A stretch of DNA of 64,000 nucleotides from Microgenomates group bacterium (GCA_041659805.1 JBAZXP010000001.1:448589-512588), one strand, 5' to 3'. Counted from the first letter of the stretch, positions 15,719 through 63,672 are shown. The notes: generated by a model from the sequence alone, not told the origin. A program made the numbers and translations.

Positions 15719-15731
15719 GTATACTCATAGC

Positions 15732-39549: not shown

Positions 39550-39613
39550 AAATTTATGTTAGCATAACCATATATTCTTGTGCTACACTGGCTAAGATTG
39601 TACCAACTTTTTT

Positions 39614-40312: not shown

Positions 40313-40315
40313 TTT

Positions 40316-46978: not shown

Positions 46979-48657
46979 TGAAAAAAGTAGTGCATTTGTT
47001 TAAAAACCCTTTTGTTCTGCTTTTAATTTTTATCATCCCAAGTTTTGTCTATTTAGTACGTCCGGGATTTTTCCCGATGCAGGATGATTTGCAGGCGTTT
47101 AGAATCCAGCAAATGGATAAATGTTTTTCAGATTTTCAATTTCCCTGCCGTTGGGTACCGGATGCTGGGTATCAATATGGATATCCTCAATTTATTTACT
47201 ATCCGCCCAGTGTTTATTATTTAGGAGAACTTTTTCATTTAGCAGGTTTTCAAATTATAGATTCCGTCAAGATTTTATTTATTTTAGGATTTATTTTAGC
47301 TGCAGTTACAATGTTTATTTTGCTTAAAGAAATATTCGGAGTTTTTCCTGCATTTGTGGGTAGTATTTTATATACTTATGCGCCATATCGCGCTGTTGAT
47401 GTTTATGTCAGAGGAGCAATGAGCGAATTTTGGTCTTTTGTTTTTTTCCCTCTAATTTTTTGGTCTATCTATAAATTGATTAAATCGAAAAATGATAAAT
47501 ATATTATATGGTGTGCGATTTCTGTAGGATTATTACTTCTTACCCATAATTTGATGTCTTTGATCTTTATCCCTATTGCAGCGGTTTGGGGGATTTTTTG
47601 GATCATAGCAGAAAAGAATTGGAAAATATTTCCCAAAGTTATTTTTGCAGGACTTTTGGGACTTGGTCTGGCCGCATTTTTTACTTTTCCGGTAATTTTG
47701 GAAAAACAATATGCACATACAGAATCAATGTTGGGCGGATATTTTGATTACAGACAACATTTTGTTGATATAAATCAATTGTTTATTTCTAATCACTGGG
47801 GTTATGGTTCTTCATGGCTCGGGCCAAATGACGATTTAAATCTTTCAACAGGCAGTGTGCAGGTGTTGGCCTCACTTTTAGCTTTACTCCTGGCAATTTT
47901 TTATTACAAAAAAAATAAAAAGATTGCCTTACTGACAATTGTTTTATTTATTGCTGACCTGTTTGTTTTATTTATGACCCATCAAAAATCCAGTCCGGTT
48001 TGGGATTTATTGTCACCTTTGTGGTTTTTGCAATTTCCCTGGAGATTTTTAGCTGATAGCATTTTTATATTATCTCTACTGTCTTGTATCGCAATATTTT
48101 TCCTGAACGGTAAAACATTGCAAAAAATAGTCAGTATTTTTTTAATAGCATTGGTTTTATGCTTAAATTTTAGTTTTTTCCAACCATCAAGATGGTTTGA
48201 GATGACAGATGCTCAAAAGTTTTCAGGTAAAAGCTGGGAAAAACAATTAACAGTCAGTATTTTTGATTATTTGCCGATTTATGCCAAACTTCCGCCTATT
48301 CAAAAAGCCCCGGATTATCCGGAAGTGATGGACGGGAAAGCCACGTTTGTAGGCTATAAAAAGGGGAGTGATTTTCAGGTTGGGAAAGTGGCTGCAGAGT
48401 CACCCGCAAATTTAAGGCTGCCTTTGTTTGATTTCCCGGGGATGGAAGTGAAAGTTGACGGAAAAGTTGTTCCTCACTGGCATGATGATTGCAGAAATCA
48501 GGAATTCTGTTTGGGGTTAATTAGTTTTGATATTTACCCCGGTGAGCATACAATAGAAGCAAGACTGAAGAATACTTTGATCAGAGGATTGGGGAACGGA
48601 ATAACAGTCAGCAGTTTATTAGTTTTGGGTTATTTGATTTGGAAAAACCGCAGATGA
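46975..48657 (+). CDS. YfhO-like GT-C membrane protein (paralog 1 of 3 in tandem)
   Basis: 560 aa with QDDLQAFRI, YRAVDVYVRGAMSEFWSF, QFPWRFL, and C-terminal GMEVKVDGK...YPGEHTIE. Confidence 0.55.
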   Translation: MMKKVVHLFKNPFVLLLIFIIPSFVYLVRPGFFPMQDDLQAFRIQQMDKCFSDFQFPCRWVPDAGYQYGYPQFIYYPPSVYYLGELFHLAGFQIIDSVKILFILGFILAAVTMFILLKEIFGVFPAFVGSILYTYAPYRAVDVYVRGAMSEFWSFVFFPLIFWSIYKLIKSKNDKYIIWCAISVGLLLLTHNLMSLIFIPIAAVWGIFWIIAEKNWKIFPKVIFAGLLGLGLAAFFTFPVILEKQYAHTESMLGGYFDYRQHFVDINQLFISNHWGYGSSWLGPNDDLNLSTGSVQVLASLLALLLAIFYYKKNKKIALLTIVLFIADLFVLFMTHQKSSPVWDLLSPLWFLQFPWRFLADSIFILSLLSCIAIFFLNGKTLQKIVSIFLIALVLCLNFSFFQPSRWFEMTDAQKFSGKSWEKQLTVSIFDYLPIYAKLPPIQKAPDYPEVMDGKATFVGYKKGSDFQVGKVAAESPANLRLPLFDFPGMEVKVDGKVVPHWHDDCRNQEFCLGLISFDIYPGEHTIEARLKNTLIRGLGNGITVSSLLVLGYLIWKNRR

Positions 48658-50327
48658 TAAAAAATTTAACAAAATATTGGGCAGTTTGGGTATTAGTAAT
48701 TTTTATTGCCAGTGTTTCATGGCCGCTTTCTTTGCCCGGTTATTTTTCCCATCATGATGATTTACAGATTATGCGCATTTTTGAAATGAGGCGTTGTTTA
48801 ATTGATGCCCAAATCCCCTGCCGTTGGGTTCCTGATATGGGGTATGGAAACGGTTTCCCTCTTTTTAATTATTACAGCGCCCTACCTTATTATATAGGTG
48901 CGGTACTGAGTTTTTTGCTGGGCTATATTTGGTCGGCAAAGGTTTTATTTTTTATCCCTTTAATTTTAGGAGGTTTTTCTATGTATCTTTTAGGCAAAGA
49001 ATTATTTGGCAAAATTGCCGGAATAGTTTCTGCTGTTTTATATTTGTTTGCTCCTTATTTAGCACTGGATCTATACGTCAGAGGTGCTGTGGCTGAAAGT
49101 TTTGCATTATCAATTGTGCCTTTGGTTTTTTATTTTATTTTAAGATTGATTAAGCAGTCATCTTTTAAAAACTTTGCAGGATTGTCTGTTTCTTTTGCAG
49201 CTTTTTTAATCAGTCACAATATTATGACATTATTTTTTGCACCCATTATCTTTCTTTGGACTTTATGTTTTTCATATTCCGAAAAATTAAAAAGAATATG
49301 GCTGGTTTTTATAGGTTTAATATTAGGATTCGGAATGGCTGCATTTTTTATTCTTCCTGCATTTTTTGAAAAGTCCCTCGTTCAGTCAGATTCTTTGATA
49401 CAAATGGATTTGAATTTCAGGGCAAATTTTGTGGCAATTAATCAACTCTTCCTGGAACGTTTTTGGGGTTACGGAGCTTCAACTTTTGGCTCGAATGATA
49501 CTATATCTTTTCAGATAGGTTGGCCGCATTGGTGGCTTATGGCTCTATCAATTCCGTTTTTGATTATCGGTATTTTTACCCGAAAATTAAAATTAAATCA
49601 AATTTTGTTACCAGTTTTTCTGATAGTTATTTTTTGCTTTTCAGTCTTTATGACTCATAATCAATCTGCGTTTATTTGGGAAAAAATTGATGTTTTAAAA
49701 TATGCTCAATTTCCATGGAGATTTTTATCCTTGGCTGTTTTTACATCCAGTTTAATCGGTGGTTTTTTTGTTTTTGTTCTAAGGAACAAAGGACAACAGG
49801 TCATTCTGGCATCAGTAATTATTTTTATAACAGTATTTTTAAACTGGAGTTATTTCAAACCTGATAAATTTTATTTGAGTATGACAGATCAGGAAAAACT
49901 TACAGGTTCTTTGTGGGAAGATCAACAAAAAGCAGCAATTACAGATTATTTGCCCAAGACAGCATTAGAACCGAGGGAAAAAGCTCCGAATAGTCCGCTT
50001 TTAGTTTCAGGTAAGGCAGAAATCAGTTCATTTGCAAACTATTCAAATAAGTGGTTTTTTAAAACGAATGTTATAGAAACTTCTAAAATAGATATTCCTG
50101 TTTTTGATTTTCCGAATTGGCAAGTTTCTGTAAATGGCTCTGATTATCCTCATAATCATCAAAATTTAATCGGGAGGATAAATATCGATCTTCCGCCCGG
50201 ATCATATGAGGTAAGCGGTAATTTTAAAAATACTCAATTACGGACATTTGCAGATACCTTATCCTTAATATCTTTGGGATTATTAATCTTATTTTCTTAT
50301 GGAAAGTTTAAAAAAATATTTATCTGA
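48639..50327 (+). CDS. YfhO-like GT-C membrane protein (paralog 2 of 3)
   Basis: 562 aa with HDDLQIMRIFE, YLALDLYVRGAVAESF and QFPWRFL. It overlaps the upstream gene by 19 nt. Confidence 0.55.
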   Translation: MEKPQMIKNLTKYWAVWVLVIFIASVSWPLSLPGYFSHHDDLQIMRIFEMRRCLIDAQIPCRWVPDMGYGNGFPLFNYYSALPYYIGAVLSFLLGYIWSAKVLFFIPLILGGFSMYLLGKELFGKIAGIVSAVLYLFAPYLALDLYVRGAVAESFALSIVPLVFYFILRLIKQSSFKNFAGLSVSFAAFLISHNIMTLFFAPIIFLWTLCFSYSEKLKRIWLVFIGLILGFGMAAFFILPAFFEKSLVQSDSLIQMDLNFRANFVAINQLFLERFWGYGASTFGSNDTISFQIGWPHWWLMALSIPFLIIGIFTRKLKLNQILLPVFLIVIFCFSVFMTHNQSAFIWEKIDVLKYAQFPWRFLSLAVFTSSLIGGFFVFVLRNKGQQVILASVIIFITVFLNWSYFKPDKFYLSMTDQEKLTGSLWEDQQKAAITDYLPKTALEPREKAPNSPLLVSGKAEISSFANYSNKWFFKTNVIETSKIDIPVFDFPNWQVSVNGSDYPHNHQNLIGRINIDLPPGSYEVSGNFKNTQLRTFADTLSLISLGLLILFSYGKFKKIFI

Positions 50328-51987
50328 ACATTTTTGGATTTTGATTTTACCTTTAAGCTACTTTAGTGTGAAGGCTCTTTTTGTACCCGGTTTTTATGGT
50401 GCTTCAGATGACTTACATATTGCTTGGTTATTTGAACTTGACCACTTAATTAAATTAGGTCAATTTCCACCACGTTTTGTGCCGGATTTAAGTTTCGGAT
50501 TCGGTTATCCGTTATTTAATTTTGTTTTTCCGCTGCCTTTTTATATAGGAGAAATATTTCATCTATTTGGTCTGAATTTTGTAGATAGTATCAAGACTGC
50601 TTTTTTATTAAGTGTGCCTTTATCGGGGATTTTTATGTATCAGTTTCTAAAAAGTTTTACTTCTAAACTTTTAAGTTTGGCGGGAGCTGTTATATATATG
50701 TATACCCCATACAGATCAACGGATATTTATATCAGAGGAGCAATTGGTGAGATAATTGCTTTTGTTTTTTTACCTCTGATTGCATTATCTGTAGTAAATC
50801 TTTCAGCAGAAAATAGCAGTTCTAAGCTGTCATTAAATTTCAGATGGATTGGAATCGGTGCGCTGTCACTTGCTGCCTTAATACTTACTCATAATATAAC
50901 CGCATATATGTTTCTTCCTTTTATTTTTATTTTAGCAATAGTCAGGTTAATCGTTTTCAAAAGAATCTTAAACAATTTACTAAATTTGTTTGTTTCTTTT
51001 TTGCTTGGGTTATTAATCAGCCTTTATTTTTGGTTTCCGGCAATATTGGATAGTAGTTTAATGAAATATGACACTGTTTTTAATTTTGTTGATCATTTTC
51101 CGACACTGCAACAATTAATTATTCCCTACTGGGGGTATGGTGCTTCTGTACCGGGACCAAATGACGGAATGTCATTTTATATCGGTTCAGTCAGTTTAAT
51201 GATTCTGATTGTTGGTTTATTGCTGATTATTTTGATGTGGAAGAAATTTTCAAATAATCAGAAAATAATTACTTGTTGGGCTGGTACCTCTTTTTTGATT
51301 GCTTTTTTGATGATGAATTTCAGATCAATTTTTATTTGGCAGAATGTGCCGTTAATTCCTTATTTCCAATTCCCGTGGAGATTTTTAATTATCACTACTT
51401 TTATGGTTCCGGTTTTTGTAATTGTTTTCGATAAAATAAAATATAAGGGATTTATAGCCTTAGTAATTATATTTTTATCACTCGTTACAAACTTTAATGA
51501 TTTTCACCCGCATGATAATTTAGGAAGAACTGATAATTATTATTTAAATAACTATATTCCTTTGCCTACTGCAAGCAAGGATTATTCTTTGTTACATGAG
51601 GAATATTTAAGATTACCAGTAGGTACAATTAGCCGTCCTGATAAAAATTACCCGCGCGTTTTTCCTCAGACTGATCAGGTAAAGGAAGTAATTGAGGTAG
51701 ATAGTTTAACGACTTTAATTAAAACCCAATCAAATGAAAAATTTACAATAAATTATAATAAGTATTATTTCCCAGGTTGGTATGCAAAAATCGATAATCA
51801 GGAAACTGAAATTTCTGCGGGTGATCCCTTTGGTCAGATTCAGTTGAATATTCCTTCGGGGCAGCATGAAGTTAAAATTGGATTTAGAGAGACACCTTTT
51901 AAATTATTCGCTGATATTGTCTCGTTGTCTGCTTTTATTGTTACAATGTATTTAATATTCGGATTAAAGGAATTTAAAAAAATATGA
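50299..51987 (+). CDS. YfhO-like GT-C membrane protein (paralog 3 of 3)
   Basis: 562 aa with SDDLHIAWLFE, YRSTDIYIRGAIGEII, QFPWRFL, and C-terminal YFPGWYAKIDNQETEI. Confidence 0.55.
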   Translation: MESLKKYLSEHFWILILPLSYFSVKALFVPGFYGASDDLHIAWLFELDHLIKLGQFPPRFVPDLSFGFGYPLFNFVFPLPFYIGEIFHLFGLNFVDSIKTAFLLSVPLSGIFMYQFLKSFTSKLLSLAGAVIYMYTPYRSTDIYIRGAIGEIIAFVFLPLIALSVVNLSAENSSSKLSLNFRWIGIGALSLAALILTHNITAYMFLPFIFILAIVRLIVFKRILNNLLNLFVSFLLGLLISLYFWFPAILDSSLMKYDTVFNFVDHFPTLQQLIIPYWGYGASVPGPNDGMSFYIGSVSLMILIVGLLLIILMWKKFSNNQKIITCWAGTSFLIAFLMMNFRSIFIWQNVPLIPYFQFPWRFLIITTFMVPVFVIVFDKIKYKGFIALVIIFLSLVTNFNDFHPHDNLGRTDNYYLNNYIPLPTASKDYSLLHEEYLRLPVGTISRPDKNYPRVFPQTDQVKEVIEVDSLTTLIKTQSNEKFTINYNKYYFPGWYAKIDNQETEISAGDPFGQIQLNIPSGQHEVKIGFRETPFKLFADIVSLSAFIVTMYLIFGLKEFKKI

Positions 51988-53477
51988 ACGATGATATTGA
52001 ATCAGGTGAACACCTGGATGCTACCTCTGAGATAACGCTGGATTTGGTAAAAAAGCGCGCTGTTCGTGGGGTTGCAACATTAACCGGAAGAACAATATTT
52101 ACTCAAGTTGTAGGGCTTGTGGCAACTTTCTTATTAACTATTTTTTTAACTCCGAATCAATTTGGAATTTATTTTATAGTCAGTGCTGCAGTTAATTTTT
52201 TTACATATTTTTCTGATATAGGACTCGGAGCAGCGATTATTCAGAAAAAAGAACGTTTAACTAGAAAAGACCTGGAAACAACTTTTACTATTCAAAATGC
52301 ATTGGTTCTAACATTGGTAGTGATTATTTTTTTAATTACGCCTCTTCTTAAAAGTTGGCAACATTTGGATACTGAATCAGTATATTTATTGTGGGCACTG
52401 GCATTCGGACTTTTATTGTCTTCTTTAAAAAGTGTACCGTCGTTACTTCTAGAAAGAGAATTGGATTTTAATAAATTAGTTATTCCGCAAATGTTTGAGT
52501 TCTTACTATTTCAGGTTATTGCAGTGTTCTTAGCATGGAGAGGGTTCGGGATCACGAGCTATACAATTGCAGTTATTGTAAGCCGTATCGCAGGGCTCGC
52601 GGCGATTTTTATCGTTCGTCCTTGGAGGCCCGGCTTTGCTTTTGATATTGAATCTCTGAAAGGTTTGCTTCGTTTTGGTTTGCCTTATCAGATTAATACT
52701 TTTTTGGCATCTATTAAGGATGACGGTATGACAGTATTTTTGGGAGGAATTTTAGGACCGGCAAATATTGGGTTATTGGGTTGGGCGCAAAAATGGGGAA
52801 ATGCACCTCTGCGTTTTTTTATGGATCAGGTGATTAAGGTTACTTTTCCGGCTTATGCACGTATGCAGGATCATAGAGAAGAGCTATCAAAAGCGGTTTC
52901 AAAATCTATTTTCTTTATCAGTGTATTAGTTTTTCCGACGGTTGCTTTATTAGTATTTCTTTCACCTATATTAGTTAGCATTATTCCGAAGTATGGAAAA
53001 TGGCAACCAGCTATTTTAGCCCTCGGTTTAATTTCTATTAATACTCTTTTGGCTTCAGTAAATACACCTTTAGTTAATGCGCTGAATGCGATTGGAAAAA
53101 TCAAAATAACTTTTCGCCTAATGATTATGTGGACGGTACTGACATGGGTATTAGTACCAACATTGGCGTACTTTTACGGTCTTAATGGTGCAGCTTTAGG
53201 ATATGCACTGGTTGGCACAAGTGCAGTAATCGCAATTTATATTGTAATGAAATATATTCCGATTAATTTATGGAAGAGTATAGGATCGCCCACTATTGCC
53301 GTAATTTTGATGGGCATTGTTTTAGCTGTCGGACGAATATATTTACCCTGGTCATGGATGTCAGTAATTATTTTAGGTATTTCGTCTCTGTTTGTTTATG
53401 CACTTTTACTTTTTATTTTAGTGGGGCCATCAATATGGCTGGATGTAAAAAAAATAGTTCTGAATGTTAAAGATTAA
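51984..53477 (+). CDS. MOP-superfamily polysaccharide/oligosaccharide flippase (Wzx-like)
   Basis: 497 aa with about 14 TM helices. It has the charged N-terminal cap, short loops and overall architecture of Wzx/MurJ family flippases. An ATGA overlap links it to the upstream gene. Confidence 0.55.
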   Translation: MNDDIESGEHLDATSEITLDLVKKRAVRGVATLTGRTIFTQVVGLVATFLLTIFLTPNQFGIYFIVSAAVNFFTYFSDIGLGAAIIQKKERLTRKDLETTFTIQNALVLTLVVIIFLITPLLKSWQHLDTESVYLLWALAFGLLLSSLKSVPSLLLERELDFNKLVIPQMFEFLLFQVIAVFLAWRGFGITSYTIAVIVSRIAGLAAIFIVRPWRPGFAFDIESLKGLLRFGLPYQINTFLASIKDDGMTVFLGGILGPANIGLLGWAQKWGNAPLRFFMDQVIKVTFPAYARMQDHREELSKAVSKSIFFISVLVFPTVALLVFLSPILVSIIPKYGKWQPAILALGLISINTLLASVNTPLVNALNAIGKIKITFRLMIMWTVLTWVLVPTLAYFYGLNGAALGYALVGTSAVIAIYIVMKYIPINLWKSIGSPTIAVILMGIVLAVGRIYLPWSWMSVIILGISSLFVYALLLFILVGPSIWLDVKKIVLNVKD

Positions 53478-53490
53478 TCATTAGTAAATT

Positions 53491-56400
53491 ATGGTATTTT
53501 TTAAAAAACTTTTTTTCAGTTTAATTATTTTTTTATGTTTAAGTTTAGTTTCATCTGTTTACGCGGTTGATAACTCTTTTGTGACGGTAGTGAACCCTAT
53601 TAGAGGAAATGATTTTTGGGATCAACCAAGTCAGAAAATAGAAACAGCTGTTTTGGGTCAAATTCAAATTTTAAATGAGTTTAGGCTTCCTGCTACATTT
53701 TTAATCCGTTTTGATGCATTTTCATCTGATAAAACAATCAATGTATTAAAAAATTCAGGTTATGAAAAAGGATTATTTTTGGAAGTAACTCCTTCCTGGA
53801 CTAAAGCCGCGGGAGTGAGTTACAGGCAATCTGCTGTCTGGCATTTGGCAGGAAGTGTTTTTTTAAGCGGTTATGAGACGCAGGAAAGAAATAAATTAAT
53901 TGATACAGCATTCGAAGAGTTTAAAAAAACATTCGGTTTTTATCCGAAATCTGTGGGAGCTTGGTGGATTGATAGTTACTCGCTTGAGTACATGCAGACA
54001 AAATACAATATTGATGCAGCATTGATTGTGGCAGACCAATATTCAACAGATAACTATCAAATCTGGGGACAATATTTCGCAACCCCATATTATCCTGCCA
54101 AGAAAAATGCCTTAATGCCCGCACAGGATGTTAAAAATAAAATTTCGGTCGTCATGATGCAGTGGGCAACCAGAGACCCTATAAATGGCTATGGGGAAGG
54201 GGTGAATGAAACAACTTACAGCGTGCAGGCAAATGATTATATTGATTATCATAAATTAAATTCAGATTACTTCGGGAAGTTAATTGATTTGTATACAACA
54301 CAGCAATTTAACCAATTTAATCAGCTTGTTGTAGGTTTGGAAAATTCCTATTCCTGGCAAAAATATGAATCTGAATACCGTAAACAGATTGAAATATTAA
54401 GTAACAGGCAGCAAAAAGGACAATTATCAATCTTAACAATGGCAGATTTTGCTAAATGGTATGAACGCACATTCCCTGATTTATCCCCTGCACAAATAAT
54501 TGTGGCAAATGACCCGTTGGGTTCTTCTAAAAAAGTTGTATGGTACATGAATCCTTATTACCGCGCTGGTTGGTTTTACAATCAAAACGGGAGTGCCTTC
54601 CGTGATATCAGACAATATGTCGAAGGGGAGACAGAACCCTGCTACCTTTCAGCATGTCAGCAAATAAACTTTGCTACTTTTTCAACAAGAGTGCTTGATG
54701 ATGTGACTTACGGACAAAAATTAGTTTTGGATAAAGGTAAGATTAATGATTTTAATGTTAAAAAAGGTACGGGATTTATTTTAAACTATACTAATGAAGC
54801 CGAAAGAAAAAGACAAATTAGTTTTTTGCCAAGAGATATTTCAATTGATGACAAAATCAGCTCGATTGATAATTTAATCTTGCAGACCAAGAATACTCAA
54901 ACTGATAGTTCTAAAATAAAAGTTGAATTTACGCCGGGTACTACTAAGTATTTTCAAGAGTCATCCGGCACTTTGATTATTAATATTCTAAAATTTCTTT
55001 TATTTGTTATTTTAGGCTTATTTATTCCGGGGTTTTTGATTGTTAAATTTTTAAAACAAGAATCAGTATTTCTAAATATATTTTTATCCATATGCAGTGG
55101 TTTTGTTATGTTAGTTTTGATGTCTTTTGCTGTAGGTTATTTAAAAATGTTTTGGCTGACATATATTTATGTAGCACTTTCTTTTTTAATTTTTATTTTT
55201 GGAAAATTCTACAAGGAGATATCTTTTAGAGAAATAAATTTACCTAAAATCAAAAATTTATTACCAGTCATAATAATTATATTCTTTGGGACTATCTTTC
55301 AATCATTAATAATGATCCGTTCAGGTTGGGTTTATGATTTTGGAATCGGTTTTTGGGGTCCTACAGGTCATGATATGGTTTGGCACCAGGCATTGGTTAA
55401 TCAATTAATTAACAATGTTCCTCCTCAAAATCCAATTTTAGCCGGAGAATCATTGCAGGGATACCACTATTTTTATGATTTATTAGTCGCAGATACATTT
55501 CGGTTAACCCAAATTTCTATTTTGGATTTACTCTATAGATTTTATCCTGTAATGTTTTCTATATTTTTAGGAATCGGGACTGTTTGTTTGCTTAACAGAA
55601 TTACCAAAAATAAAATTATTGTTTTAATTTCTTTATATTTTGTTTATTTTGCAGGTAGCTTTGGTTGGATTGTTACATATCTCCGAGATAAGATTTTTAG
55701 CGGGGAATCAGTCTTTTGGGTCAATCAACCTGTTTCGATGAATCTTAACCCGCCCTTTGCGATTTCTTTAATTCTAATGATTGCGATTATTTTATTAGTG
55801 ATCGTTTTTAGACTGAGAAAAAGTGTTTGGTGTTCTGCCTTGCTGGTTTTGCTTATTGGGACTTTGGTTGAATTTAAGGTTTATGCAGGGGTGGTGGTAC
55901 TGGGTGGTATGTCTGTAATGGTTTTGACAGAAATTCTTTTCAGGAGAAACTTTGAATACTTAAAGATTTTTTCTGTGGCGGCAATTGTTTCAATAGTATT
56001 GTTTATATCTCAAAATAAAGGCGCAATCGGATTATTGGTTTGGTCTCCGTTTTGGTTTATTGACTCGATGATTGATTCTCCGGATAGGGTAGGGTGGGCT
56101 AAATTATCTTCTGCAAGGCTTGCCTATTTTGAAAGGGGAGAGTGGTTAAAATATGTAGCTATCGAAGTTTTATCCTTGAGTATATTTATTTTGGGTAATT
56201 TGGGACTTAGAATAATATCTTTTTCCAGGATAAATCTCTTATTTAAAAAAGACTTTTGGCAAACAACAGAATATCCTTTTATGCTTTTTATGGGGTTTGC
56301 ATCTCTAATAATTCCGATATTTTTGATTCAAAAAGGTAACCCCTGGAATACGATTCAATTTTTGTACTATTTAATTTACTTAATTGCTCTTTCTGCAGGT

Positions 56401-56928
56401 TTCGGACTATATGCTTTATATAGAAAATTACCAAAAATTATCGGACTAGTATTTTTAGGGATTGTTCTGTTATTGGCGCCTGTTAATGCAGTAGTGTCTT
56501 TTACGGATACTTTGGGTCAAATACCGCCTGCTTCACTTAGCCAAAATGAGTTGGAAGCATTAAATTTTCTTGCCAAACAGCCGGATGGGGTCGTTTTGAC
56601 TTACCCCTATAACGATTCATTGAACAGTAAATTTTTAACCCCAATTCCTCTTTTTGCTTATACAACCTCAGCTTATGTTTCTGCTTTTTCCGGGAAGCAA
56701 ACATATATTGAAGACACTATGCAAAATGAAATTTTACAGACAGATTACAATCCGAGACTCGTTGCAGCAGAAGATTTTTTTAGTAGCGGCATAATGCCAC
56801 CAAGTTTGGAAGGGAAAATAAGATATGTTTATCTGCCTAAGTTTTTTGAAATTAATGTAGATACAAGTAAACAATGGAAAAAGATTTTTGAAAATAAGGA
56901 AGTATTAATCTATGAGATTAGTAGTTAA
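53491..56928 (+). CDS. Giant polytopic membrane protein: N-terminal extracytoplasmic domain (about 480 aa) plus a GT-C-like multi-TM module plus a C-terminal extracytoplasmic domain
   Basis: 1145 aa with a signal/TM segment followed by a soluble domain of unknown fold. About 14 TM helices carry WHQALVNQLINNVPPQNPILAGESLQGYHYFYD. The tail resembles the protein at 60488..62443. Confidence 0.45.
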   Translation: MVFFKKLFFSLIIFLCLSLVSSVYAVDNSFVTVVNPIRGNDFWDQPSQKIETAVLGQIQILNEFRLPATFLIRFDAFSSDKTINVLKNSGYEKGLFLEVTPSWTKAAGVSYRQSAVWHLAGSVFLSGYETQERNKLIDTAFEEFKKTFGFYPKSVGAWWIDSYSLEYMQTKYNIDAALIVADQYSTDNYQIWGQYFATPYYPAKKNALMPAQDVKNKISVVMMQWATRDPINGYGEGVNETTYSVQANDYIDYHKLNSDYFGKLIDLYTTQQFNQFNQLVVGLENSYSWQKYESEYRKQIEILSNRQQKGQLSILTMADFAKWYERTFPDLSPAQIIVANDPLGSSKKVVWYMNPYYRAGWFYNQNGSAFRDIRQYVEGETEPCYLSACQQINFATFSTRVLDDVTYGQKLVLDKGKINDFNVKKGTGFILNYTNEAERKRQISFLPRDISIDDKISSIDNLILQTKNTQTDSSKIKVEFTPGTTKYFQESSGTLIINILKFLLFVILGLFIPGFLIVKFLKQESVFLNIFLSICSGFVMLVLMSFAVGYLKMFWLTYIYVALSFLIFIFGKFYKEISFREINLPKIKNLLPVIIIIFFGTIFQSLIMIRSGWVYDFGIGFWGPTGHDMVWHQALVNQLINNVPPQNPILAGESLQGYHYFYDLLVADTFRLTQISILDLLYRFYPVMFSIFLGIGTVCLLNRITKNKIIVLISLYFVYFAGSFGWIVTYLRDKIFSGESVFWVNQPVSMNLNPPFAISLILMIAIILLVIVFRLRKSVWCSALLVLLIGTLVEFKVYAGVVVLGGMSVMVLTEILFRRNFEYLKIFSVAAIVSIVLFISQNKGAIGLLVWSPFWFIDSMIDSPDRVGWAKLSSARLAYFERGEWLKYVAIEVLSLSIFILGNLGLRIISFSRINLLFKKDFWQTTEYPFMLFMGFASLIIPIFLIQKGNPWNTIQFLYYLIYLIALSAGFGLYALYRKLPKIIGLVFLGIVLLLAPVNAVVSFTDTLGQIPPASLSQNELEALNFLAKQPDGVVLTYPYNDSLNSKFLTPIPLFAYTTSAYVSAFSGKQTYIEDTMQNEILQTDYNPRLVAAEDFFSSGIMPPSLEGKIRYVYLPKFFEINVDTSKQWKKIFENKEVLIYEISS

Positions 56929-56942
56929 AATAAAATAATAAA

Positions 56943-58595
56943 ATGTTTAGTTTACTTAAGAAAATATTATCAAACTATTTATTTTGGCTGACAGTTATTA
57001 TTGTTTTCGCATTTTTTATCAGGACTTTTGATTTAGCGAATAATCCCCCCGCAATGTATGGGGATGAGCTGACAATCGTTTATGATGCTTATTCAATTCT
57101 TAAAACCGGTCATGATCAGACAGGCCAATTTCTTCCTCTGACATTCAAGATGGGGGACGGAAGACCCCCCTTCTATGTATATGCAACTATCCCGTTTGTT
57201 GCTTTATTCGGCCCGACAGCTGTGGGTGTTAGGGCTTTGTCAATACTCTCAGGTTTAGGGATAATTTTAATTACCTTTTTCCTAACAGAAATTTTAATAA
57301 GTAAGCGGGCAGCCTTGTTTGCGTCTTTTTTGCTTGCAATTTCTCCCTGGGATATTGCGCTTAGCAGGGGAGGTTTTGAAACTCATCTTGCTTTATTTCT
57401 GATTCTCCTTGGGATATTTTCTTTTATTAAAGCAAGGGAAAAACCGTTTTGGTTGATTTTTTCAGCATTATCCTTAGGTCTTGCAATACATACTTATCAT
57501 TCATATAAAGTTCTGGTTCCGCTCGTAATAATATTGCTTCTATTCCTAATAGACATAAAAAGTTTTTTTGTAAAAAAATCCATTAAATTTTTAATTTCTT
57601 CAGTATTAATTTTCTTTATACTTTTTTCAGTATGGGTATTTTTAATTTTTAATGGATCTGAAGGAAGATTCAATAATACCAATGTTTTTTCTAATCCTGA
57701 TATTGCCCGCAGCGAAATCGATTCTACTGTTACTCAAAGAAATCAAAATAATCTTCCGTTTGGTTTAAATAATCTTTTTTATAATAAATATGTTTTTTAC
57801 GCAGGAGTTTTAGAACAAAATTATATTGATAATATTTCCCTAAGCTTTTTATTTAGCAGTGGCGATCGTAACCCACGTCATAACCCTTTCGCTATGGGTG
57901 AATTATATCTGGCCCAATTTTTTCTAATTCTTATTGCGTTGCTGACTAAGCTTAACCAGCATAAGAAACTAATGATTTTTCTGATCGGTTGTATTCTTAT
58001 TAGCCCTATTCCCACATCAGTGGTATCGAACGGGCATGCTTTGCGAAGCAGTTTTCTTTTGTTTCCGCTTACCATATTATCCACAATGGGCATGGAGACT
58101 GTAATTCAAAATTACCGGAGATTTTTAAAGATTAGAATATTTTTGGCATTTATAATTGCAATCTTTTTATTACAGTTTATATGGTTGATAGGAAATTTAT
58201 TTTATGTGTCAGGAGATAAGTATGCCAATTTTTGGTCTTTTTCTGCTAAAAAAGCGAGTACAGAGGCCTTAGAAAACAGGCAGAAATTTAATTACATTTT
58301 TCTGTCTACTCATATAGACAATATGGAGTTTGCATATCCAACATATGCAGCGATTGATCCGGAATTAGTAATTGCTGAAAACCGACAGCCAAAAATCATT
58401 GGAAAATATAGCTTCAAACAGTTTGAAAATATTTATCTAGGAGCTGTTCCTAATTCTGAAGTTAATGATTTTATTGCGGGTCTTTCCGGAAACGTACTCT
58501 ATATCGGTGAAGCAGACGCCTTAAAGGAAGTAAAAAATTATGATACGATTAATGGGTTAAATAATCAGCCGGCACTAATTAAGGTAGAAAAATAA
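56943..58595 (+). CDS. ArnT/PMT-like GT-C glycosyltransferase (PMT_2-like)
   Basis: 550 aa with MYGDELTIVYDAYSILKTGHDQTGQFLPL in the first loop. It is a paralog of the partial ORF at 63677. Confidence 0.6.
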   Translation: MFSLLKKILSNYLFWLTVIIVFAFFIRTFDLANNPPAMYGDELTIVYDAYSILKTGHDQTGQFLPLTFKMGDGRPPFYVYATIPFVALFGPTAVGVRALSILSGLGIILITFFLTEILISKRAALFASFLLAISPWDIALSRGGFETHLALFLILLGIFSFIKAREKPFWLIFSALSLGLAIHTYHSYKVLVPLVIILLLFLIDIKSFFVKKSIKFLISSVLIFFILFSVWVFLIFNGSEGRFNNTNVFSNPDIARSEIDSTVTQRNQNNLPFGLNNLFYNKYVFYAGVLEQNYIDNISLSFLFSSGDRNPRHNPFAMGELYLAQFFLILIALLTKLNQHKKLMIFLIGCILISPIPTSVVSNGHALRSSFLLFPLTILSTMGMETVIQNYRRFLKIRIFLAFIIAIFLLQFIWLIGNLFYVSGDKYANFWSFSAKKASTEALENRQKFNYIFLSTHIDNMEFAYPTYAAIDPELVIAENRQPKIIGKYSFKQFENIYLGAVPNSEVNDFIAGLSGNVLYIGEADALKEVKNYDTINGLNNQPALIKVEK

Positions 58596-58603
58596 AAGAT
58601 TAT

Positions 58604-59848
58604 ATGAATTTTTTGAAAGATAAATACATTGTTAAAATATTTGTATTAGCACTTTTAATTAGGTTGATCATAATGCCTTTTTATTTTCATCCTGATATCA
58701 AAACTTACAATTTTCAGTCATCTTTTCTAAAACAAGGTGTTGTTGATATTTACTCATACCTTATTACAAATAAAGAAAAGCTGCCTTTGAAAGATGAGTT
58801 TGTATATTTTCCGCTAACGTATTTTTCTTTGGGTGGATATCAGATAATAATGCAGCCATTTTTGGGTAATAATTTTCAGTTATGGTTAGGGGATGCTTCC
58901 CAGAATGCAATTGATCAGACAGGCGTTTTCCGATACTTATTTATTTTAAAACTGCCTTATCTGATTTTGGATTTTGCCACTGCAATTATTTTAATGAAAT
59001 TATTTGATGATAATAAAAAAAAGAGAGCTGTATTAACTTTATGGTTACTGAATCCTTTTTCATTGGCATTAATCTATATCTTTAGTAATATAGATATTTT
59101 TCCTGTTTTTTTAACTGTACTGAGCTTATATTTTTCCAAAATAAATAAAATAATGATTGCATCGCTTTTGATAGGTTTGGCAGCAGGATTTAAGGCATAC
59201 CCTATACTTTTTATTCCATTTTTATTCTTTTATGCTCAGGGCTTAAAGCAAAAAACATTAGTGGTTGTTCCGGGATTAATTGCATTTTTTGCAGTGATTG
59301 CTCCATTTTTAAAGTCCTCCGGCTTCCAACAGGCAACAATTGCTTCTGGGCTAACAACCAGAATTATCTCGCCCACTTTTGCCATTGGTTTTAGCGAAAG
59401 CCTAATCATTGCTATGATTTCTTTAGGAGCTCTTTTTTTCTATGCATTTAATCTTGAAAATTTTAAGTTTGAGCGGCTACCACAATTTTATTTAGCAGCC
59501 TTATTATTAATTTTTTCTTCAATTCATTTTCATATTCAATGGTTGTTGTGGATGATTCCGTTTATAATTATTATTGGAGCTATACATAAACGATTTCTCG
59601 CCTCGCTGTTTGTTCTTTTGACTACTGCAATATTTATCCCCTTATTATATCCGGACCATTTTATGGGTTTTTCCCTGATGGAGCCGATCAGCTCTTATTT
59701 CATTCCATTGCCCACATTATTTCAGATAACTCAGAGATTTTATGACCCTTACGCCATTCAAAGCATTTTACACAGTGTATTTTTGGGAGGATCGATTATA
59801 TTAATAGTTCAAATGTTTGGAGGAGAAAAAAATGAAACAATTGAATAA
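58604..59848 (+). CDS. Polytopic membrane protein, possible GT-C-like (DUF2029/GT87-like?)
   Basis: 414 aa with about 11 TM helices. Its conserved loop reads GFKAYPILFIPFLFFYAQG. Confidence 0.35.
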   Translation: MNFLKDKYIVKIFVLALLIRLIIMPFYFHPDIKTYNFQSSFLKQGVVDIYSYLITNKEKLPLKDEFVYFPLTYFSLGGYQIIMQPFLGNNFQLWLGDASQNAIDQTGVFRYLFILKLPYLILDFATAIILMKLFDDNKKKRAVLTLWLLNPFSLALIYIFSNIDIFPVFLTVLSLYFSKINKIMIASLLIGLAAGFKAYPILFIPFLFFYAQGLKQKTLVVVPGLIAFFAVIAPFLKSSGFQQATIASGLTTRIISPTFAIGFSESLIIAMISLGALFFYAFNLENFKFERLPQFYLAALLLIFSSIHFHIQWLLWMIPFIIIIGAIHKRFLASLFVLLTTAIFIPLLYPDHFMGFSLMEPISSYFIPLPTLFQITQRFYDPYAIQSILHSVFLGGSIILIVQMFGGEKNETIE

Positions 59849-60491
59849 TATTTTTTTAGTAGTTATTTCATTCATTATTCTAATGCCTGTGATTATTGGT
59901 TTGAATATCCGTTCGACTCAGGATCCTATACAGCCTTCATTCGCAGGAACCGAAAAAATTTTTCAATCCGTTTTAGTTTCACAAAAATTTCTTTCTAAAG
60001 AGAATGGCTTGTCTGGTATTGGTATCAGTATAAAAAACCCAAACTTAGCAAATAAAAATGAATTAACCCTTTCTCTTTATGAAGGAGAAAGGGCAATCCG
60101 GAGTTTATCAATTAATGGGGGAGCGATTGAGGACGGGAGCCTGTTAAGGTTTTTATTTCCTAAAATCCCGGATTCAAAAGGAAAAGTATATACTTTTGTT
60201 TTAAATTCTCCTGCGTCTGTAGAACCTGAGGCATTTGAGGCGTATCTTACTAACGAAAAATTTTCAGATGAAAGTTTGATAGTAAACAATAATGAAAGAC
60301 AAGATAATGTGTCTTTCATTAGAATATATAAATCCGGTAATCCAATTGCGGTTTTGGGAGAAATTTTTTCCGGTGTATTTGTTAAATTATTTAATGATTT
60401 AATTTTTTCTGTATTCTATATAACTTTAGTTCTCAGTTGTGTTGTTTATTTGATCTTGGATATATTTAAAAGTGACCGTAAGTCTTATTAA
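59817..60491 (+). CDS. Hypothetical bitopic protein with an extracytoplasmic domain
   Basis: 224 aa with N- and C-terminal TM helices flanking a soluble domain of about 150 aa. It is the last gene of the co-directional array, and its start may instead be Met6. Confidence 0.35.
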   Translation: MEEKKMKQLNNIFLVVISFIILMPVIIGLNIRSTQDPIQPSFAGTEKIFQSVLVSQKFLSKENGLSGIGISIKNPNLANKNELTLSLYEGERAIRSLSINGGAIEDGSLLRFLFPKIPDSKGKVYTFVLNSPASVEPEAFEAYLTNEKFSDESLIVNNNERQDNVSFIRIYKSGNPIAVLGEIFSGVFVKLFNDLIFSVFYITLVLSCVVYLILDIFKSDRKSY

Positions 60492-62443
60492 TTAACTTTC
60501 CATATTTGAATTTCGTCATTCTCAAATTCTTTTGTTAATTTAGTTTTTTGTAAGTCCGCAGCAGGAGGATTTAGTTTAGGAAAGTAGAGATAATTTATTT
60601 TGTTTTCAGCCAGTATTTTGCTGAATTCTAGGGGATCAGAAATTTTAAAAACTTCTTCCTGGACAACTTGTCTTTGCTTAAAATTATATCCCATGATGTC
60701 TATCTGCTCGTTATCGGAAAGAAAAGTATTTCTGTCTGACATTGCACTTATATAACTTGTATCTGACCAAACCCAAATAGGAGGTATGGAGAATTTTGAG
60801 ATAAAATATCTGTTATAAGGAGGTGCGATTATCGTGCTGTTTTTCTCAGAGTTTAATTTTAAATAATTTAAAGCTTGAATTTCGTTCGAGCTTATTTTAG
60901 CAAGTGGTGGCTTTGAATAAAAATCATATAATAAAGCAACTTGAGTCGGCACAGAAATAAATATTATGAAAAATGAAACTAAAAGGTACATAACTTTTGA
61001 GGAAAGCTTTTGCATTAAGGTTGAAACAGCAATTCCGGAAAGAATGGCAAATATCAATATTAAATATTGGAGAAATTGAGCAATGTTTCCGGCTACCCCT
61101 TTTTGTAAAAATATAAGTGGCAATATTAAGGATGAAAAAGAGATAAGTAATAATAATTGGCTGAAATAATTGAATTTAAGTTTATCAAAGAATGCAACGA
61201 TGCCGATAAATTTAGCACCAAGGTTTCCGAATATAAAAATTAGGAATGATGTTATCTCAATTTGGAATACCCGTTTCCAGTTATTCTCCGAAAAGTAAGT
61301 TTGCCTTTTAAGTTCAAGATCAAGCCAGTCTAAACGGCTGTTGGAAACAACCATTGTTCTGATAAGCCACCATGGTTCGTATATTAAGAAGGAGGCGGAT
61401 TGCGAGGTATTCGGAAAATATAAAACAGCGGAGAGTAAACTACTTAAAGATGCGACAGCTAAAATTGAAAATTGCTTTTCTCTTAATAGTTGCCAGAAAC
61501 CTATTATGACTAAACTTCCCAAAACAACCACACCTGCGTAAACTTTAAAGACAATAAGCGTGCCTGCAAGCATGCAACAAAGTAAATATAGAGACAAATT
61601 CTTTTTTGCCAAAAATTGGTAGAATAAATAGAGAAAAGTAATAAGGATAATGAAAGATGCGATTTGGGGAGGGTTGCCGGATGAGCTTTGAATTTGTGAG
61701 GCCCAAAAAATTGATTCTCCATCAATAGTCTTGTTTTTTATCCATGTGGCAATGTACCCAAAACTACCTGAAAAGTAGACAAAGAAAACAGACCATATTC
61801 CTGCGCTAAAATTGTCGCCAATTTTTTTTCCGATAAAAAAGGTCAATGCTCCTAAAAGAATAGAATAAAAAAGAGGGAAAAATTTGAAATAAAGATCGAA
61901 ACCGGAAATTCCTAAATATTTATAAAATACAGCAGGAGCTATATCAGAAAAGAAATGATAATTAATTAATCTTTCGCCGGCTAAAGATGGATTCATAAAA
62001 GGAGGACCTTTGGAAATTGATTCCATTAAGGCGATGTGCCAAGCACCATCGTGTCCGTTTGAGCTCCAAAAAACGATATCGCCGTTTATTGTAGTTCCGC
62101 TCGGGGCAATAACCGCCAATTGTCCGGCAATACCAAGAATAAAAATTAACAAAAGAGTTATTAAATGTTTTTTGTCCGGAATTTTATATTGCTTAAATGA
62201 TAAGTTGGTATTCTTTAAACAAAAAATATCAATAAATATAACAATTAATAAAATTAATAGTTCCAGTTTAACAAGTATTAATATATATGAAAGTAAAGTG
62301 AATGCGACAAATCCCAGTGAGGTTCCCAAAATCAATCTTTCCCAACTGGTAATGGTTATTGATGACTTTTTTAATAAAAAGAGCCCAGGAAGACAAAAAC
62401 AGAAAATTACTGCCAGTATGAAAATAATAAAGCCTAATATCAT
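60488..62443 (-). CDS. Polytopic membrane protein, GT-C-like (paralog of the TM/C-terminal module of 53491..56928)
   Basis: 651 aa with AWHIALMESISKGPPFMNPSLAGERLINYHFFSD and a C-terminal extracytoplasmic domain. Confidence 0.45.
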   Translation of the reverse strand: MILGFIIFILAVIFCFCLPGLFLLKKSSITITSWERLILGTSLGFVAFTLLSYILILVKLELLILLIVIFIDIFCLKNTNLSFKQYKIPDKKHLITLLLIFILGIAGQLAVIAPSGTTINGDIVFWSSNGHDGAWHIALMESISKGPPFMNPSLAGERLINYHFFSDIAPAVFYKYLGISGFDLYFKFFPLFYSILLGALTFFIGKKIGDNFSAGIWSVFFVYFSGSFGYIATWIKNKTIDGESIFWASQIQSSSGNPPQIASFIILITFLYLFYQFLAKKNLSLYLLCCMLAGTLIVFKVYAGVVVLGSLVIIGFWQLLREKQFSILAVASLSSLLSAVLYFPNTSQSASFLIYEPWWLIRTMVVSNSRLDWLDLELKRQTYFSENNWKRVFQIEITSFLIFIFGNLGAKFIGIVAFFDKLKFNYFSQLLLLISFSSLILPLIFLQKGVAGNIAQFLQYLILIFAILSGIAVSTLMQKLSSKVMYLLVSFFIIFISVPTQVALLYDFYSKPPLAKISSNEIQALNYLKLNSEKNSTIIAPPYNRYFISKFSIPPIWVWSDTSYISAMSDRNTFLSDNEQIDIMGYNFKQRQVVQEEVFKISDPLEFSKILAENKINYLYFPKLNPPAADLQKTKLTKEFENDEIQIWKVN

Positions 62444-62487
62444 GTTAAGTAAAATATAATTATCTTTTTCATTATGCTAATTTAGCT

Positions 62488-63672
62488 ATGTGGTATATTG
62501 ATAATATGAATTTGAAAATAAGCCCCCCTTTTTTTAAAAAAGTATTGATTCTTTTCGCAATTTTAAGTTTATTTGTTATATTGCGCGGGCACATTATTTA
62601 TTATCTATACTATTTTAACTTTAATCAAGAACCCCTTTTTTTCTCAGAATATTTTCCAAGACATGTTTTTTTGAGTTGGTTAGCTTTTGGATTAGGTTTT
62701 GTTAATATTTTTTTCCTATATAATATTGGTTTAAGAATATATAATTTTAAATTTGCAGTCTTTCTGGCTTTATTGTATGCAATTTCTCCCTGGTCAGCAT
62801 ATGTAGATATTTTAGGGAGTAGCAATGCTTATTTTTTAAGTTGGTCATTGGCTTTCATTTTATCGGTTATTTTATTTATACATAACCATAAAAATAGTAG
62901 TGTTTATCTGTTTTTTAGTGCAATCGGTTTACTGACTTCCTCTATTTTCGGTTTATTTGTATTTATTAGCCTTTTGATAAGTGTATACATTATTAAATAT
63001 GTGAATTATTCACAATTGATAACCGTTTGCAAAATAACATTATTCCCGGTTCTTGTAGTTTTGTATATGTTATTTTCAAATATAAATGTAACAAAAAATT
63101 TAATCATAGATAATACTATTTTTTTTCAGGATCCGGGAATATTAAATATTGTAAATCAACTTAGAGGAGAAACAGATTCTGCTAATTTTAGTAAATTAGG
63201 AAAAATTATTGAAAATAAATATCTCTATACTGGTGAAAAAATATTGTTAAATTTTTCTATGGATTTTTCCCCTTCTTTATTCTTTAGTTCTCAGTTTAAG
63301 CTATTTAATTTCTCTTTTAGCCCGCCCATTCTTTTGGGATTTATACTTCCCTTTGTTATTGGGATTTTTATGTTAAAGCGGCATATGAAATATTTAGTTG
63401 TATCTATTGGGTTGATCTTGGCATTATCACTGCCTTCTGTTTTGGACAGCAGATCACCGAATTTAGAAAAGTTAATTCTTGTTTCCCCTATCATTTATAT
63501 GTATATAGCACTAGGTTTAATAACGATCACAAAAAATATTAAGATTTTCAGACCTACTAGATTATTATTGATTGTTATCATTATGGTGAGTATCCAGGCT
63601 TTGTTTGTAATAGCAGACATTGATTTACGGGAAAAAGCACGGTTTGACACGATTTATGGTAAGTATCTTTAA
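62488..63672 (+). CDS. Polytopic membrane protein, hypothetical (possibly GT-C-like)
   Basis: 394 aa with about 11 TM helices. Confidence 0.35.
   Translation: MWYIDNMNLKISPPFFKKVLILFAILSLFVILRGHIIYYLYYFNFNQEPLFFSEYFPRHVFLSWLAFGLGFVNIFFLYNIGLRIYNFKFAVFLALLYAISPWSAYVDILGSSNAYFLSWSLAFILSVILFIHNHKNSSVYLFFSAIGLLTSSIFGLFVFISLLISVYIIKYVNYSQLITVCKITLFPVLVVLYMLFSNINVTKNLIIDNTIFFQDPGILNIVNQLRGETDSANFSKLGKIIENKYLYTGEKILLNFSMDFSPSLFFSSQFKLFNFSFSPPILLGFILPFVIGIFMLKRHMKYLVVSIGLILALSLPSVLDSRSPNLEKLILVSPIIYMYIALGLITITKNIKIFRPTRLLLIVIIMVSIQALFVIADIDLREKARFDTIYGKYL

Follow-up and report, generated by a model that had tools for sequence, protein, structure and literature searches.

A conserved fusion of a DUF3863-type barrel with a GT-C-fold membrane core in Microgenomates bacteria

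Introduction

The window analysed here, a stretch of 64,000 nucleotides from a Microgenomates group bacterium (GCA_041659805.1 JBAZXP010000001.1:448589-512588), encodes a protein of 1145 amino acids (Table 1) and raises the question of what a single polypeptide might do that joins a large soluble domain to a polytopic membrane protein. An earlier note, made from the sequence, had described an N-terminal soluble domain grafted onto a core resembling glycosyltransferases of the C fold (GT-C), and had suggested that a glycan-processing and a glycan-transferring domain are thereby combined in one chain. We have found that the frame is one genuine gene, that its N-terminal module is a distant member of DUF3863 (PF12979), and that its membrane core, as judged from the predicted structure, is a GT-C-A-fold family absent from Pfam and NCBIfam. 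With a likelihood that we place slightly above even, the protein acts as the outer-face GT-C enzyme in a surface-glycan pathway coupled to Wzx, and carries a built-in glycan-binding or glycan-cleaving module.

A conserved two-module protein

The open reading frame (ORF) is uninterrupted, as the earlier note had read it, and the four sequence blocks quoted there have been located at residues 70, 95, 157 and 179, while the remaining two frames across the same interval carry 92 and 110 stops. The protein is identical to P0121, an entry from a public Microgenomates-group metagenome-assembled genome that is labelled 'hypothetical protein', and about 95 among the best 120 homolog clusters have sizes of 1116-1147 amino acids. 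When 185,579 genomes representing species were scanned, 297 loci of the family were confirmed, of which 80 have been kept and analysed together with two known earlier (n = 82), and the N-terminal domain and the core are continuous in one frame in 62 of these 82 loci. The informatively named matches of the scan belong to Microgenomates-type lineages throughout. The word 'grafted' therefore holds in so far as the fusion is real and conserved, but it does not describe a one-off event, as in Daviesbacteria-like genomes this form predominates, and the N-terminal domain has other partners too.

An AlphaFold2 (AF2) model of the protein, calculated on a 115-sequence alignment, has reached a mean predicted local distance difference test (pLDDT) of 90.9 and a predicted template-modelling score (pTM) of 0.79. 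From the N- to the C-terminus it arranges a signal peptide, a barrel, a beta-sandwich, three transmembrane (TM) helices, an 11-helix core and an alpha/beta C-terminal domain, and both modules have been matched when the complete model was compared with the PDB in a single Foldseek run. The 14 TM helices of the earlier note agree with this model in number and also in parity for a topology with both termini outside; from the order of the helices and the signal peptide, both soluble modules are predicted to be extracytoplasmic. As the larger module makes up only 57% of the chain, a pTM of 0.79 would be too high if the modules were not placed relative to each other.

The membrane core

The second half of the chain has been recognized by Foldseek as a GT-C-like core followed by a C-terminal domain, in line with the first description. 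The core opens with a helix at residues 591-610, after which a 65-residue outer loop (611-676) contains short helices at 623-626, 628-641 and 661-673. Its matches comprise STT3 (9n9j_I, E 8e-7; 8agb_A, 7e-6), DPY19 (7zlh, 3e-6), PglB (3rce, 3.5e-6), AglB (7e9s, 1.8e-5) and AftA (8if8, 2.3e-5), with a Foldseek probability of 1.0 to GT-C-A enzymes over 610-770 aligned columns, and no GT-C-B enzyme (ALG6, WaaL, RodA) occurs among the matches listed. STT3/PglB/AglB (GT66), DPY19 and AftA share with the protein the membrane fold, a first outer loop with an invariant Asp and an extracytoplasmic C-terminal domain. In contrast to GT-C-A enzymes, the fusion protein carries three extra N-terminal TM helices, which would place its N-terminus outside, and in addition an N-terminal domain of an enzyme fold.

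These three helices are present in the core paralog of the window and absent from the ~550-amino-acid homologs of Woesebacteria, whose matches start at about residue 590 of the fusion protein in ORFs of 548-578 amino acids; in the model they would bring the chain from outside across to the cytoplasmic side, where the canonical GT-C TM1 begins. Invariant in all 115 sequences, including the paralog, are D628, H632, Y658-H659, E739, K796, R866, N903, Q947 and N953. D628 sits in a GHD motif of the first outer loop and may, by its conservation, have a catalytic role. Judged by the AF2 helix order, most of the invariant core residues would lie at the outer face, which fits the usual GT-C arrangement seen in ArnT, PglB and PMT structures, where acidic loop residues are combined with basic phosphate binders.

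Assignment to known GT-C families has been tried and rejected in two directions. The core is not a GT66 oligosaccharyltransferase, because the WWDYG motif is absent (no WWD[YWF]G-type motif occurs in the fusion protein or its paralog), and STT3 (PF02516) has given no match at E <= 1. Likewise, a PMT_2/ArnT-like (GT39/GT83) or YfhO-like GT-C has been discarded, as neither PF13231/PF02366 nor PF09586/PF10131 is matched and the family profile, compared by HHalign with PMT_2 and YfhO-like proteins from the neighbourhood, reaches probabilities of 4% and 2%. More generally, the Pfam families STT3, PMT, PMT_2, Dpy19 and AftA do not match the core. As a separate observation, the core motif GGESAFWANQxVSFNLNPP resembles GYGASTFGSNDTISFQIGWP of a YfhO-like neighbour (protein of 48639..50327, residues ~276-297), a likeness that is not significant by HHalign (probability 2%); the stretch concerned in the new family, GESVFWVNQPVSMNLNPP (residues 738-755 of the fusion protein), sits in an outer loop that looks equivalent.

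The N-terminal module

For the extreme N-terminus the earlier note had proposed a signal anchor. A hydrophobic segment is indeed present; it would rather be a cleavable signal peptide than an anchor, and is probably cleaved, considering that Ala25 is conserved in at least 95% of the fusions and also kept in a related ~675-amino-acid form, and that pLDDT drops below 50 at residues 20-26. The N-terminal ~470 residues are predicted to be soluble, extracytoplasmic and of an enzyme-type fold, as had been suggested. The top Foldseek match of this module is 3lm3 (BDI_3119 of Parabacteroides distasonis, DUF3863), with E 8e-12 over 429 columns against the 434-residue structure. As the alignment spans nearly all of 3lm3, it includes the beta-sandwich as well as the barrel. 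The next matches are NodB/CE4-type deacetylases and PuuE (2e-6 to 1e-3) and, at ~1e-2, a glycoside hydrolase (GH) of family GH57; weak matches to GH folds span 3e-3 to 3e-2 for GH57 (1ufa, 3n8t, 3p0b) and 5e-4 to 9e-4 for GH38. When the ~675-amino-acid relative was modelled separately (pLDDT 91.1, pTM 0.89), it matched 3lm3 with E 1e-15 and a TM-score of 0.65 (target-normalised), and its next significant matches (E <= 1e-3), among them ChbG and GH38, are without exception members of this barrel superfamily. The possibility raised at the outset that the region might lack an enzymatic fold has thus not been borne out, since Foldseek assigns it to this (beta/alpha)7 superfamily.

At the level of sequence, the N-domain family profile finds the 3lm3 sequence with E 2.9e-7 over ~260 positions, PF12979 is matched weakly by 21/31 members (best E 1.2e-4), and the precomputed Pfam column gives PF12979 for the identical protein P0121. 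The single protein finds 3lm3 only marginally among the PDB sequences (E 0.43), and since it is unmatched by PF12979 in hmmscan at E <= 1 when taken alone, its membership has to be called distant. Neither the protein nor its N-domain nor the paralog has given a usable domain match when scanned with Pfam, NCBIfam and PHROGs; a NodB/CE4 or GH family, for which a domain search of this region had been proposed, has accordingly not been found by sequence.

The likeness to 3lm3 covers barrel and beta-sandwich at TM-scores of 0.60-0.65 (target-normalised) over ~430 columns and extends, in the HMM alignment, to R228, D187, W225, E284 and the PFYPS motif. Differences are that 3lm3, as aligned, has Ser at the positions of D161 and D182, and that it is a 449-amino-acid chain with no membrane module matched, whereas the domain studied here is tethered to the membrane and joined to a GT-C core.

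When conservation is required in at least 95% of the fusions and at least 90% of the ~675-amino-acid forms, the residues found after the barrel strands are N35/P36/R38, D75, E98, W158/D161, D182/Q183/D187, W225/R228/D229 and E284, with Q246/D249 nearby. All architectures retain the Asp/Glu/Arg/Trp set, even where identity falls to 32-40%, and this persistence makes the carboxylate/arginine/tryptophan-based pocket of the barrel look functional. H118 is the sole semi-conserved His, being F, Y, T or D in other architectures, and no conserved His pair, including His-x-x-x-His, exists in the N-domain family alignments.

Module combinations in the family

The window contains one further member of the family, a 651-residue paralog in which all family-invariant residues are kept. 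It aligns in its full length with residues 495-1144 of the fusion protein (32% identity, E 2e-84) and with no other part, so that it lacks the N-terminal domain, as had been noticed before; a second copy of the N-terminal ~490 amino acids has not been found in the window, where tblastn returns only the query itself. The motif reported as common to both proteins is present in each (residue 631 of the fusion protein, residue 135 of the paralog), but its spacing is looser than stated, with 8 versus 7 residues separating AL from PP and 1 versus 2 separating PP from NP.

Besides barrel and sandwich plus core plus C-terminal domain, as in the fusion protein, and core plus C-terminal domain, as in the paralog and in the shorter Woesebacteria versions, a third architecture joins the N-terminal domain by two TM helices to the C-terminal domain. 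This ~675-amino-acid form is common and membrane-anchored, and would fold as one unit according to its pTM of 0.89; its C-terminal domain is homologous to that of the fusion protein (hhalign probability 97.6%, E 2.7e-12). An exhaustive phmmer search has collected 785 N-domain clusters at 50% identity. Among them, the barrel follows an N-terminal PMT_2-type GT-C in P0312, P0334, P0357, P0358 and P0373 (see also L086 7001..10204), with the putative active-site residues conserved. Here the barrel has been fused independently to another GT-C family, with the two parts in reversed order. P0312 is surrounded by Wzx, GT4, GT2, acetyltransferase and Wzy_C genes. These independent PMT_2 fusions, and the retention of the same C-terminal domain in the ~675-amino-acid form, argue for a functional coupling of barrel and GT-C. 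Finally, a single 1639-amino-acid ORF (P0243; L085 1868..6787) joins Wzx, N-terminal domain, core and C-terminal domain.

Some side observations concern these relatives. A few of the PMT_2-barrel proteins carry further TM helices C-terminally. The two closest N-domain homologs, P0001 and P0003 (756 and 764 amino acids, from contigs 56 and 64 kb long), both terminate with GGGSRLFGQTSRSHSI, right at the invariant GGESAFW motif, and look like frameshifted fusion copies, by pseudogene formation or by sequencing error. Many species-representative records (within L007-L083) that bear the title 'uncultured Gammaproteobacteria bacterium', and a single record with the title 'Clostridia bacterium', have loci that are syntenic with and ~50% identical to Daviesbacteria loci; their titles look like bulk-submission labels and not like true taxonomy.

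Coupling to a Wzx-type flippase and proposed function

A Wzx homolog ends less than 400 nucleotides (nt) upstream of the fusion gene in 60/62 fusion loci, and in two loci that were inspected in detail the two genes share 4-8 nt. Among the core-only loci, Wzx is found directly upstream in 8/20. The second core paralog lies within 6 kb on either side in 40/62 fusion loci, and directly downstream in 29/62, which gives the order Wzx, fusion, paralog in 29/62. The ~675-amino-acid form and a PMT_2-barrel fusion have also been found within Wzx/GT2/GT4 clusters.

The reading that we favour on these grounds may be described as follows. Cytoplasmic GT2 and GT4 enzymes would build a sugar or oligosaccharide on polyprenyl phosphate, and the Wzx-type flippase encoded adjacently upstream would carry the lipid-linked sugar to the outer leaflet, where the GT-C core would spend the flipped donor, either extending a cell-surface glycan or attaching it. 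The gene context of GT2 and Wzx suggests a polyprenyl-phosphate- or diphosphate-linked sugar or oligosaccharide as donor. The pocket with its invariant Asp/Glu/Arg/Trp residues would bind the same glycan, and the barrel would most likely cleave or trim it, in a hydrolase- or transglycosylase-like manner, rather than deacetylate it; both catalytic competence and chemistry are here deduced from residue conservation, in that a conserved pocket rich in carboxylates makes cleaving or trimming probable. Cognate hydrolases are known from many exopolysaccharide systems (BcsZ, PslG, PelA, PgaB). The neighbouring paralog would probably perform a complementary step, e.g., polymerisation versus ligation, as proposed for lactococcal WpsH/WpsJ; a division in which one of the paralogs polymerises while its partner ligates is suggested by analogy, as the order of Wzx, fusion and paralog parallels WpsG, WpsH and WpsJ.

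Indeed, the gene logic resembles that of the four-component Gram-positive systems for rhamnose cell-wall polysaccharides, with which it has been compared by gene order. In GacI/J-GacK-GacL and WpsA/B-WpsG-WpsH/WpsJ, small GT2 polyprenyl-phosphate sugar synthases, a Wzx-type flippase and one or two outer GT-C enzymes act together, GacK/GacL and WpsG/WpsJ being the pairs of a Wzx-type flippase with a GT-C (PMC10821137). The set of a GT2 synthase-like gene, a flippase and a GT-C is co-located in the window as well, with predicted activities. In contrast to the Gac and Wps systems, the enzymes of the candidate phyla radiation (CPR) carry the DUF3863 module, and the cluster in the window has many more GT-C genes. 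A second group for comparison is formed by EmbA/B/C, AftD and GT136 ORF12, which combine a GT-C core with accessory outer domains that are carbohydrate-binding modules (CBM) (PMC11127046). They share with the fusion protein the presence of a GT-C core and an extra carbohydrate-related extracytoplasmic domain in one chain, but theirs are beta-sandwich CBMs in C-terminal or inserted positions, whereas here an N-terminal (beta/alpha)7 barrel of enzyme type with a charged pocket is found.

Alternative roles of the N-terminal module

The first alternative would be that the barrel is catalytically dead and, like a CBM, holds the polysaccharide acceptor at the GT-C site. The extra outer domains of EmbA-C, AftD and GT136 ORF12 do bind the acceptor (PMC11127046), the invariant W117, W158, W192, W225, Y189 and Y250 resemble sugar-stacking platforms, and the barrel recurs with two unrelated GT-C families. 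What makes this role unlikely in our eyes, although it has to be taken seriously, is the accumulation of up to eight Asp/Glu and two Arg at or just after the C-terminal strand ends, kept to 32-40% identity and more typical of catalysis, together with the occurrence of the domain in the ~675-amino-acid form without a GT-C core, which suggests an autonomous activity.

A second proposal takes the module as a NodB/CE4-type carbohydrate de-N-acetylase or esterase that acts on the transferred sugar or the acceptor, like PgaB, PelA or PplD. It draws on the structures that follow 3lm3 in the search (3qbu, 3rxz, 1z7a, 3s6o, 3cl6 and PdaC, E 1e-7 to 1e-3) and on the label 'putative glycoside hydrolase/deacetylase' given to 3lm3 by its depositors, and the 7-stranded barrel fold is in fact common to NodB/CE4 enzymes (HP0310, PdaC, PgdA), PuuE and the N-terminal module. 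The same fold is, however, found in the GH38 and GH57 hydrolases. Canonical CE4 enzymes possess an Asp-His-His metal triad (TFDD and H-S/T-x-x-H motifs) and a catalytic His. No such metal-binding or catalytic His is found in the fusion protein, a His pair is missing, H118 varies while the Asp/Glu/Arg set is invariant, and no member matches Polysacc_deac_1 (PF01522) of Pfam. Consequently, canonical CE4 membership has been rejected, and a carbohydrate esterase is the less likely chemistry. The earlier suggestion of an esterase- or hydrolase-like fold hence stands for the fold of the GH/deacetylase superfamily, but not so well for the esterase, and we regard the deacetylase or esterase role as quite improbable.

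A further idea is that the module edits the lipid-linked donor at the outer face before transfer, perhaps by removal of an acyl or phosphate group. The precedent is ArnD, a member of the NodB superfamily whose substrate is a polyprenyl-phosphate sugar and whose step precedes that of a GT-C, namely ArnT. The invariant R38 and R228 with the carboxylates could bind phosphate and metal, the module is membrane-tethered in all architectures, and genes for UDP-glucose dehydrogenase and an NDP-sugar epimerase/dehydratase occur in the window as well as beside the ~675-amino-acid form. ArnD, however, is an enzyme of the cytoplasmic face, and no aminotransferase or formyltransferase gene has been seen; the proposal is speculative, and we hold it to be very improbable.

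Practically no chance is left to the notion that the ORF is an artefact in which a gene for a secreted enzyme and one for a 650-amino-acid membrane protein were joined by a frameshift or an assembly error: Met1 of the paralog does align exactly with a TTG codon (L495), preceded 12 nt upstream by a weak AAGAG, but in the alignment of 63 orthologs the L495 column is a start-type codon in 6/63 and has a Shine-Dalgarno-like motif nearby in 5/63, the frame is uninterrupted in 62 independent species-level genomes and in the ~95 protein clusters, and AF2 models the entire chain. As the same frame is conserved at 62 loci and no conserved internal start exists near the module junction of these 63 orthologs, a two-gene or frameshift origin has been refuted, and neither the hidden stop near residue 480 that had been considered nor a conserved ribosome-binding site there has come to light in what is an open frame.

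Returning to the outer-face GT-C step with a built-in glycan module, several points have to be weighed against it. On the side of the core, the GT-C matches reach TM-scores of 0.35-0.54 (target-normalised) at ~10% identity and are similarities of a predicted structure; the core has given no match in Pfam, NCBIfam or PHROGs (including ten core-only homologs against Pfam), the full-length family profile finds no match for the core among the PDB sequences, and HHalign detects no relationship to the neighbouring PMT_2 and YfhO-like proteins. On the side of the barrel, a conserved pocket can be a binding rather than a catalytic site, and no paper on the function of DUF3863 or 3lm3 has been found in the literature searched, the coverage of which was incomplete. 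That the barrel is held beside the transferase is a prediction for which pTM is the sole measure. The Wzx family can flip monophosphate- or diphosphate-linked cargo, so that the donor may be of either type, and the triple fusion P0243 may be a true Rosetta-stone protein or the product of an assembly indel at a gene boundary that normally overlaps; as it comes from a single 8.8-kb contig, it is weak evidence.

Gene neighbourhood

Table 1. Features of the fusion protein and of its surroundings in the window (plus strand, +; minus strand, -).
Feature	Coordinates	Strand	Basis or remark
ORF of the fusion protein, 1145 residues, ATG start	53491..56928	+	translation without internal stops
Signal peptide, residues 1-25 (MVFFKK, hydrophobic stretch, VYA/V)	53491..53565	+	hydropathy, AF2 helix 2-18
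DUF3863-type (beta/alpha)7 barrel, residues 26-334, predicted extracytoplasmic	53566..54492	+	AF2, Foldseek, family profile
Beta-sandwich after the barrel, residues 335-470	54493..54900	+	AF2 strands 335-458
Short linker between soluble module and first TM helix, residues 471-491	54901..54963	+	no stop, no conserved internal start
Three extra N-terminal TM helices, residues 492-590	54964..55260	+	AF2 helices 492-521, 526-550, 556-570
Predicted GT-C-A-fold membrane core, residues 591-1005	55261..56505	+	Foldseek, invariant columns
C-terminal alpha/beta domain, predicted extracytoplasmic, residues 1006-1145, with stop codon	56506..56928	+	AF2
Wzx/MOP-type flippase, directly upstream, 13-nt gap	51984..53477	+	Pfam Polysacc_synt_3, E 1e-51
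Paralog with core and C-terminal domain only, 651 residues	60488..62443	-	all family-invariant residues kept
GT2 and GtrA-like	37202..38386	+	Pfam Glycos_transf_2, GtrA_DPMS_TM
Small GT2	39614..40312	+	Pfam Glycos_transf_2
Small GT2	43320..44063	+	Pfam Glycos_transf_2
Three tandem YfhO/PTPS_related-like GT-C paralogs (560, 562, 562 residues)	46975..51987	+	overlapping stop/start codons
UDP-glucose dehydrogenase	7110..8399		
NDP-sugar epimerase/dehydratase	8471..9493		
RmlD-like gene	31372..32250		
958-residue secreted protein, LCAT/PGAP1-like alpha/beta-hydrolase (lipase) domain	34241..37117	-	just upstream of the glycosylation cluster

The fusion gene belongs to a co-directional run, all on the plus strand, that comprises three GT2 genes, six or more PMT_2 GT-C genes, three YfhO/PTPS-related-like genes and the Wzx/MOP flippase, with PMT_2 GT-C genes interspersed among the GT2 genes. 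By analogy with GtrB, GacI and WpsA (PMC11127046, PMC10821137), the GT2 genes are candidate polyprenyl-phosphate sugar synthases. The third of the tandem YfhO-like paralogs has no Pfam match, and the trio precedes Wzx in most related loci.

Downstream of the fusion gene follow a PMT_2 gene, a GT87-like gene, a 224-amino-acid ORF and the convergent paralog. The last three form a sub-block (58604..62443) of a GT87/PIG-M-like membrane protein, the 224-amino-acid ORF without Pfam match and the core paralog, in which the 3' ends of the latter two overlap by 4 nt (60488-60491). This sub-block recurs in the loci L009, L010, L031, L037 and L049 and in the Woesebacteria loci L057 and L063-L073.

Further GT-C genes are found upstream as well. 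Altogether, at least 15 GT-C-type genes are located in the 64 kb (9490..18068, 37202..63672), comprising PMT_2, YfhO/PTPS-related, GT87-like and the new family; for a genome of ~1.1 Mb, such an envelope-glycosylation island is unusually dense. The secreted LCAT/PGAP1-like protein has a long C-terminal region and an acidic, lysine-rich low-complexity tail.

Implications

In the literature searched, which was covered incompletely, no paper has been found that deals with the GT-C enzymes of CPR bacteria or with the fusion of a GT-C to this barrel fold or to a deacetylase. The domain combination is undescribed there, the type of machine is familiar, and the core is uncatalogued in the sense that it is absent from Pfam and NCBIfam. 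That glycan-transferring and glycan-processing domains share one chain, as the earlier note had it, is supported as far as the single conserved frame is concerned; the processing part remains an inference.

A more far-reaching reading, which we put forward tentatively as a possibility rather than an expectation, takes the DUF3863 barrel as a new catalytic family, be it a glycan hydrolase/transglycosylase or an enzyme of lipid-linked glycans, that works in cis with the GT-C as a bifunctional cut/edit-and-transfer machine for the surface glycan of Microgenomates-type CPR. If this were true, a new glycosyltransferase family would be founded by the core, and a new GH or carbohydrate esterase family by the barrel, and a DUF with a structure available since 2010 would for the first time obtain a function. 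Should the barrel be catalytic, the protein would moreover be the first in which a GT-C has a glycan-processing enzyme built in instead of a binding module.

CPR bacteria (Patescibacteria) are ultra-small and mostly uncultured, and their envelope chemistry is essentially unknown. The family described here is widespread in Microgenomates-type CPR, where it has been annotated only as 'hypothetical protein' and is invisible to Pfam and NCBIfam. The predicted GT-C fold, the coupling to Wzx and the repeated joining with DUF3863 offer a candidate function and candidate partners for DUF3863, a candidate glycosyltransferase family, and residues to mutate.

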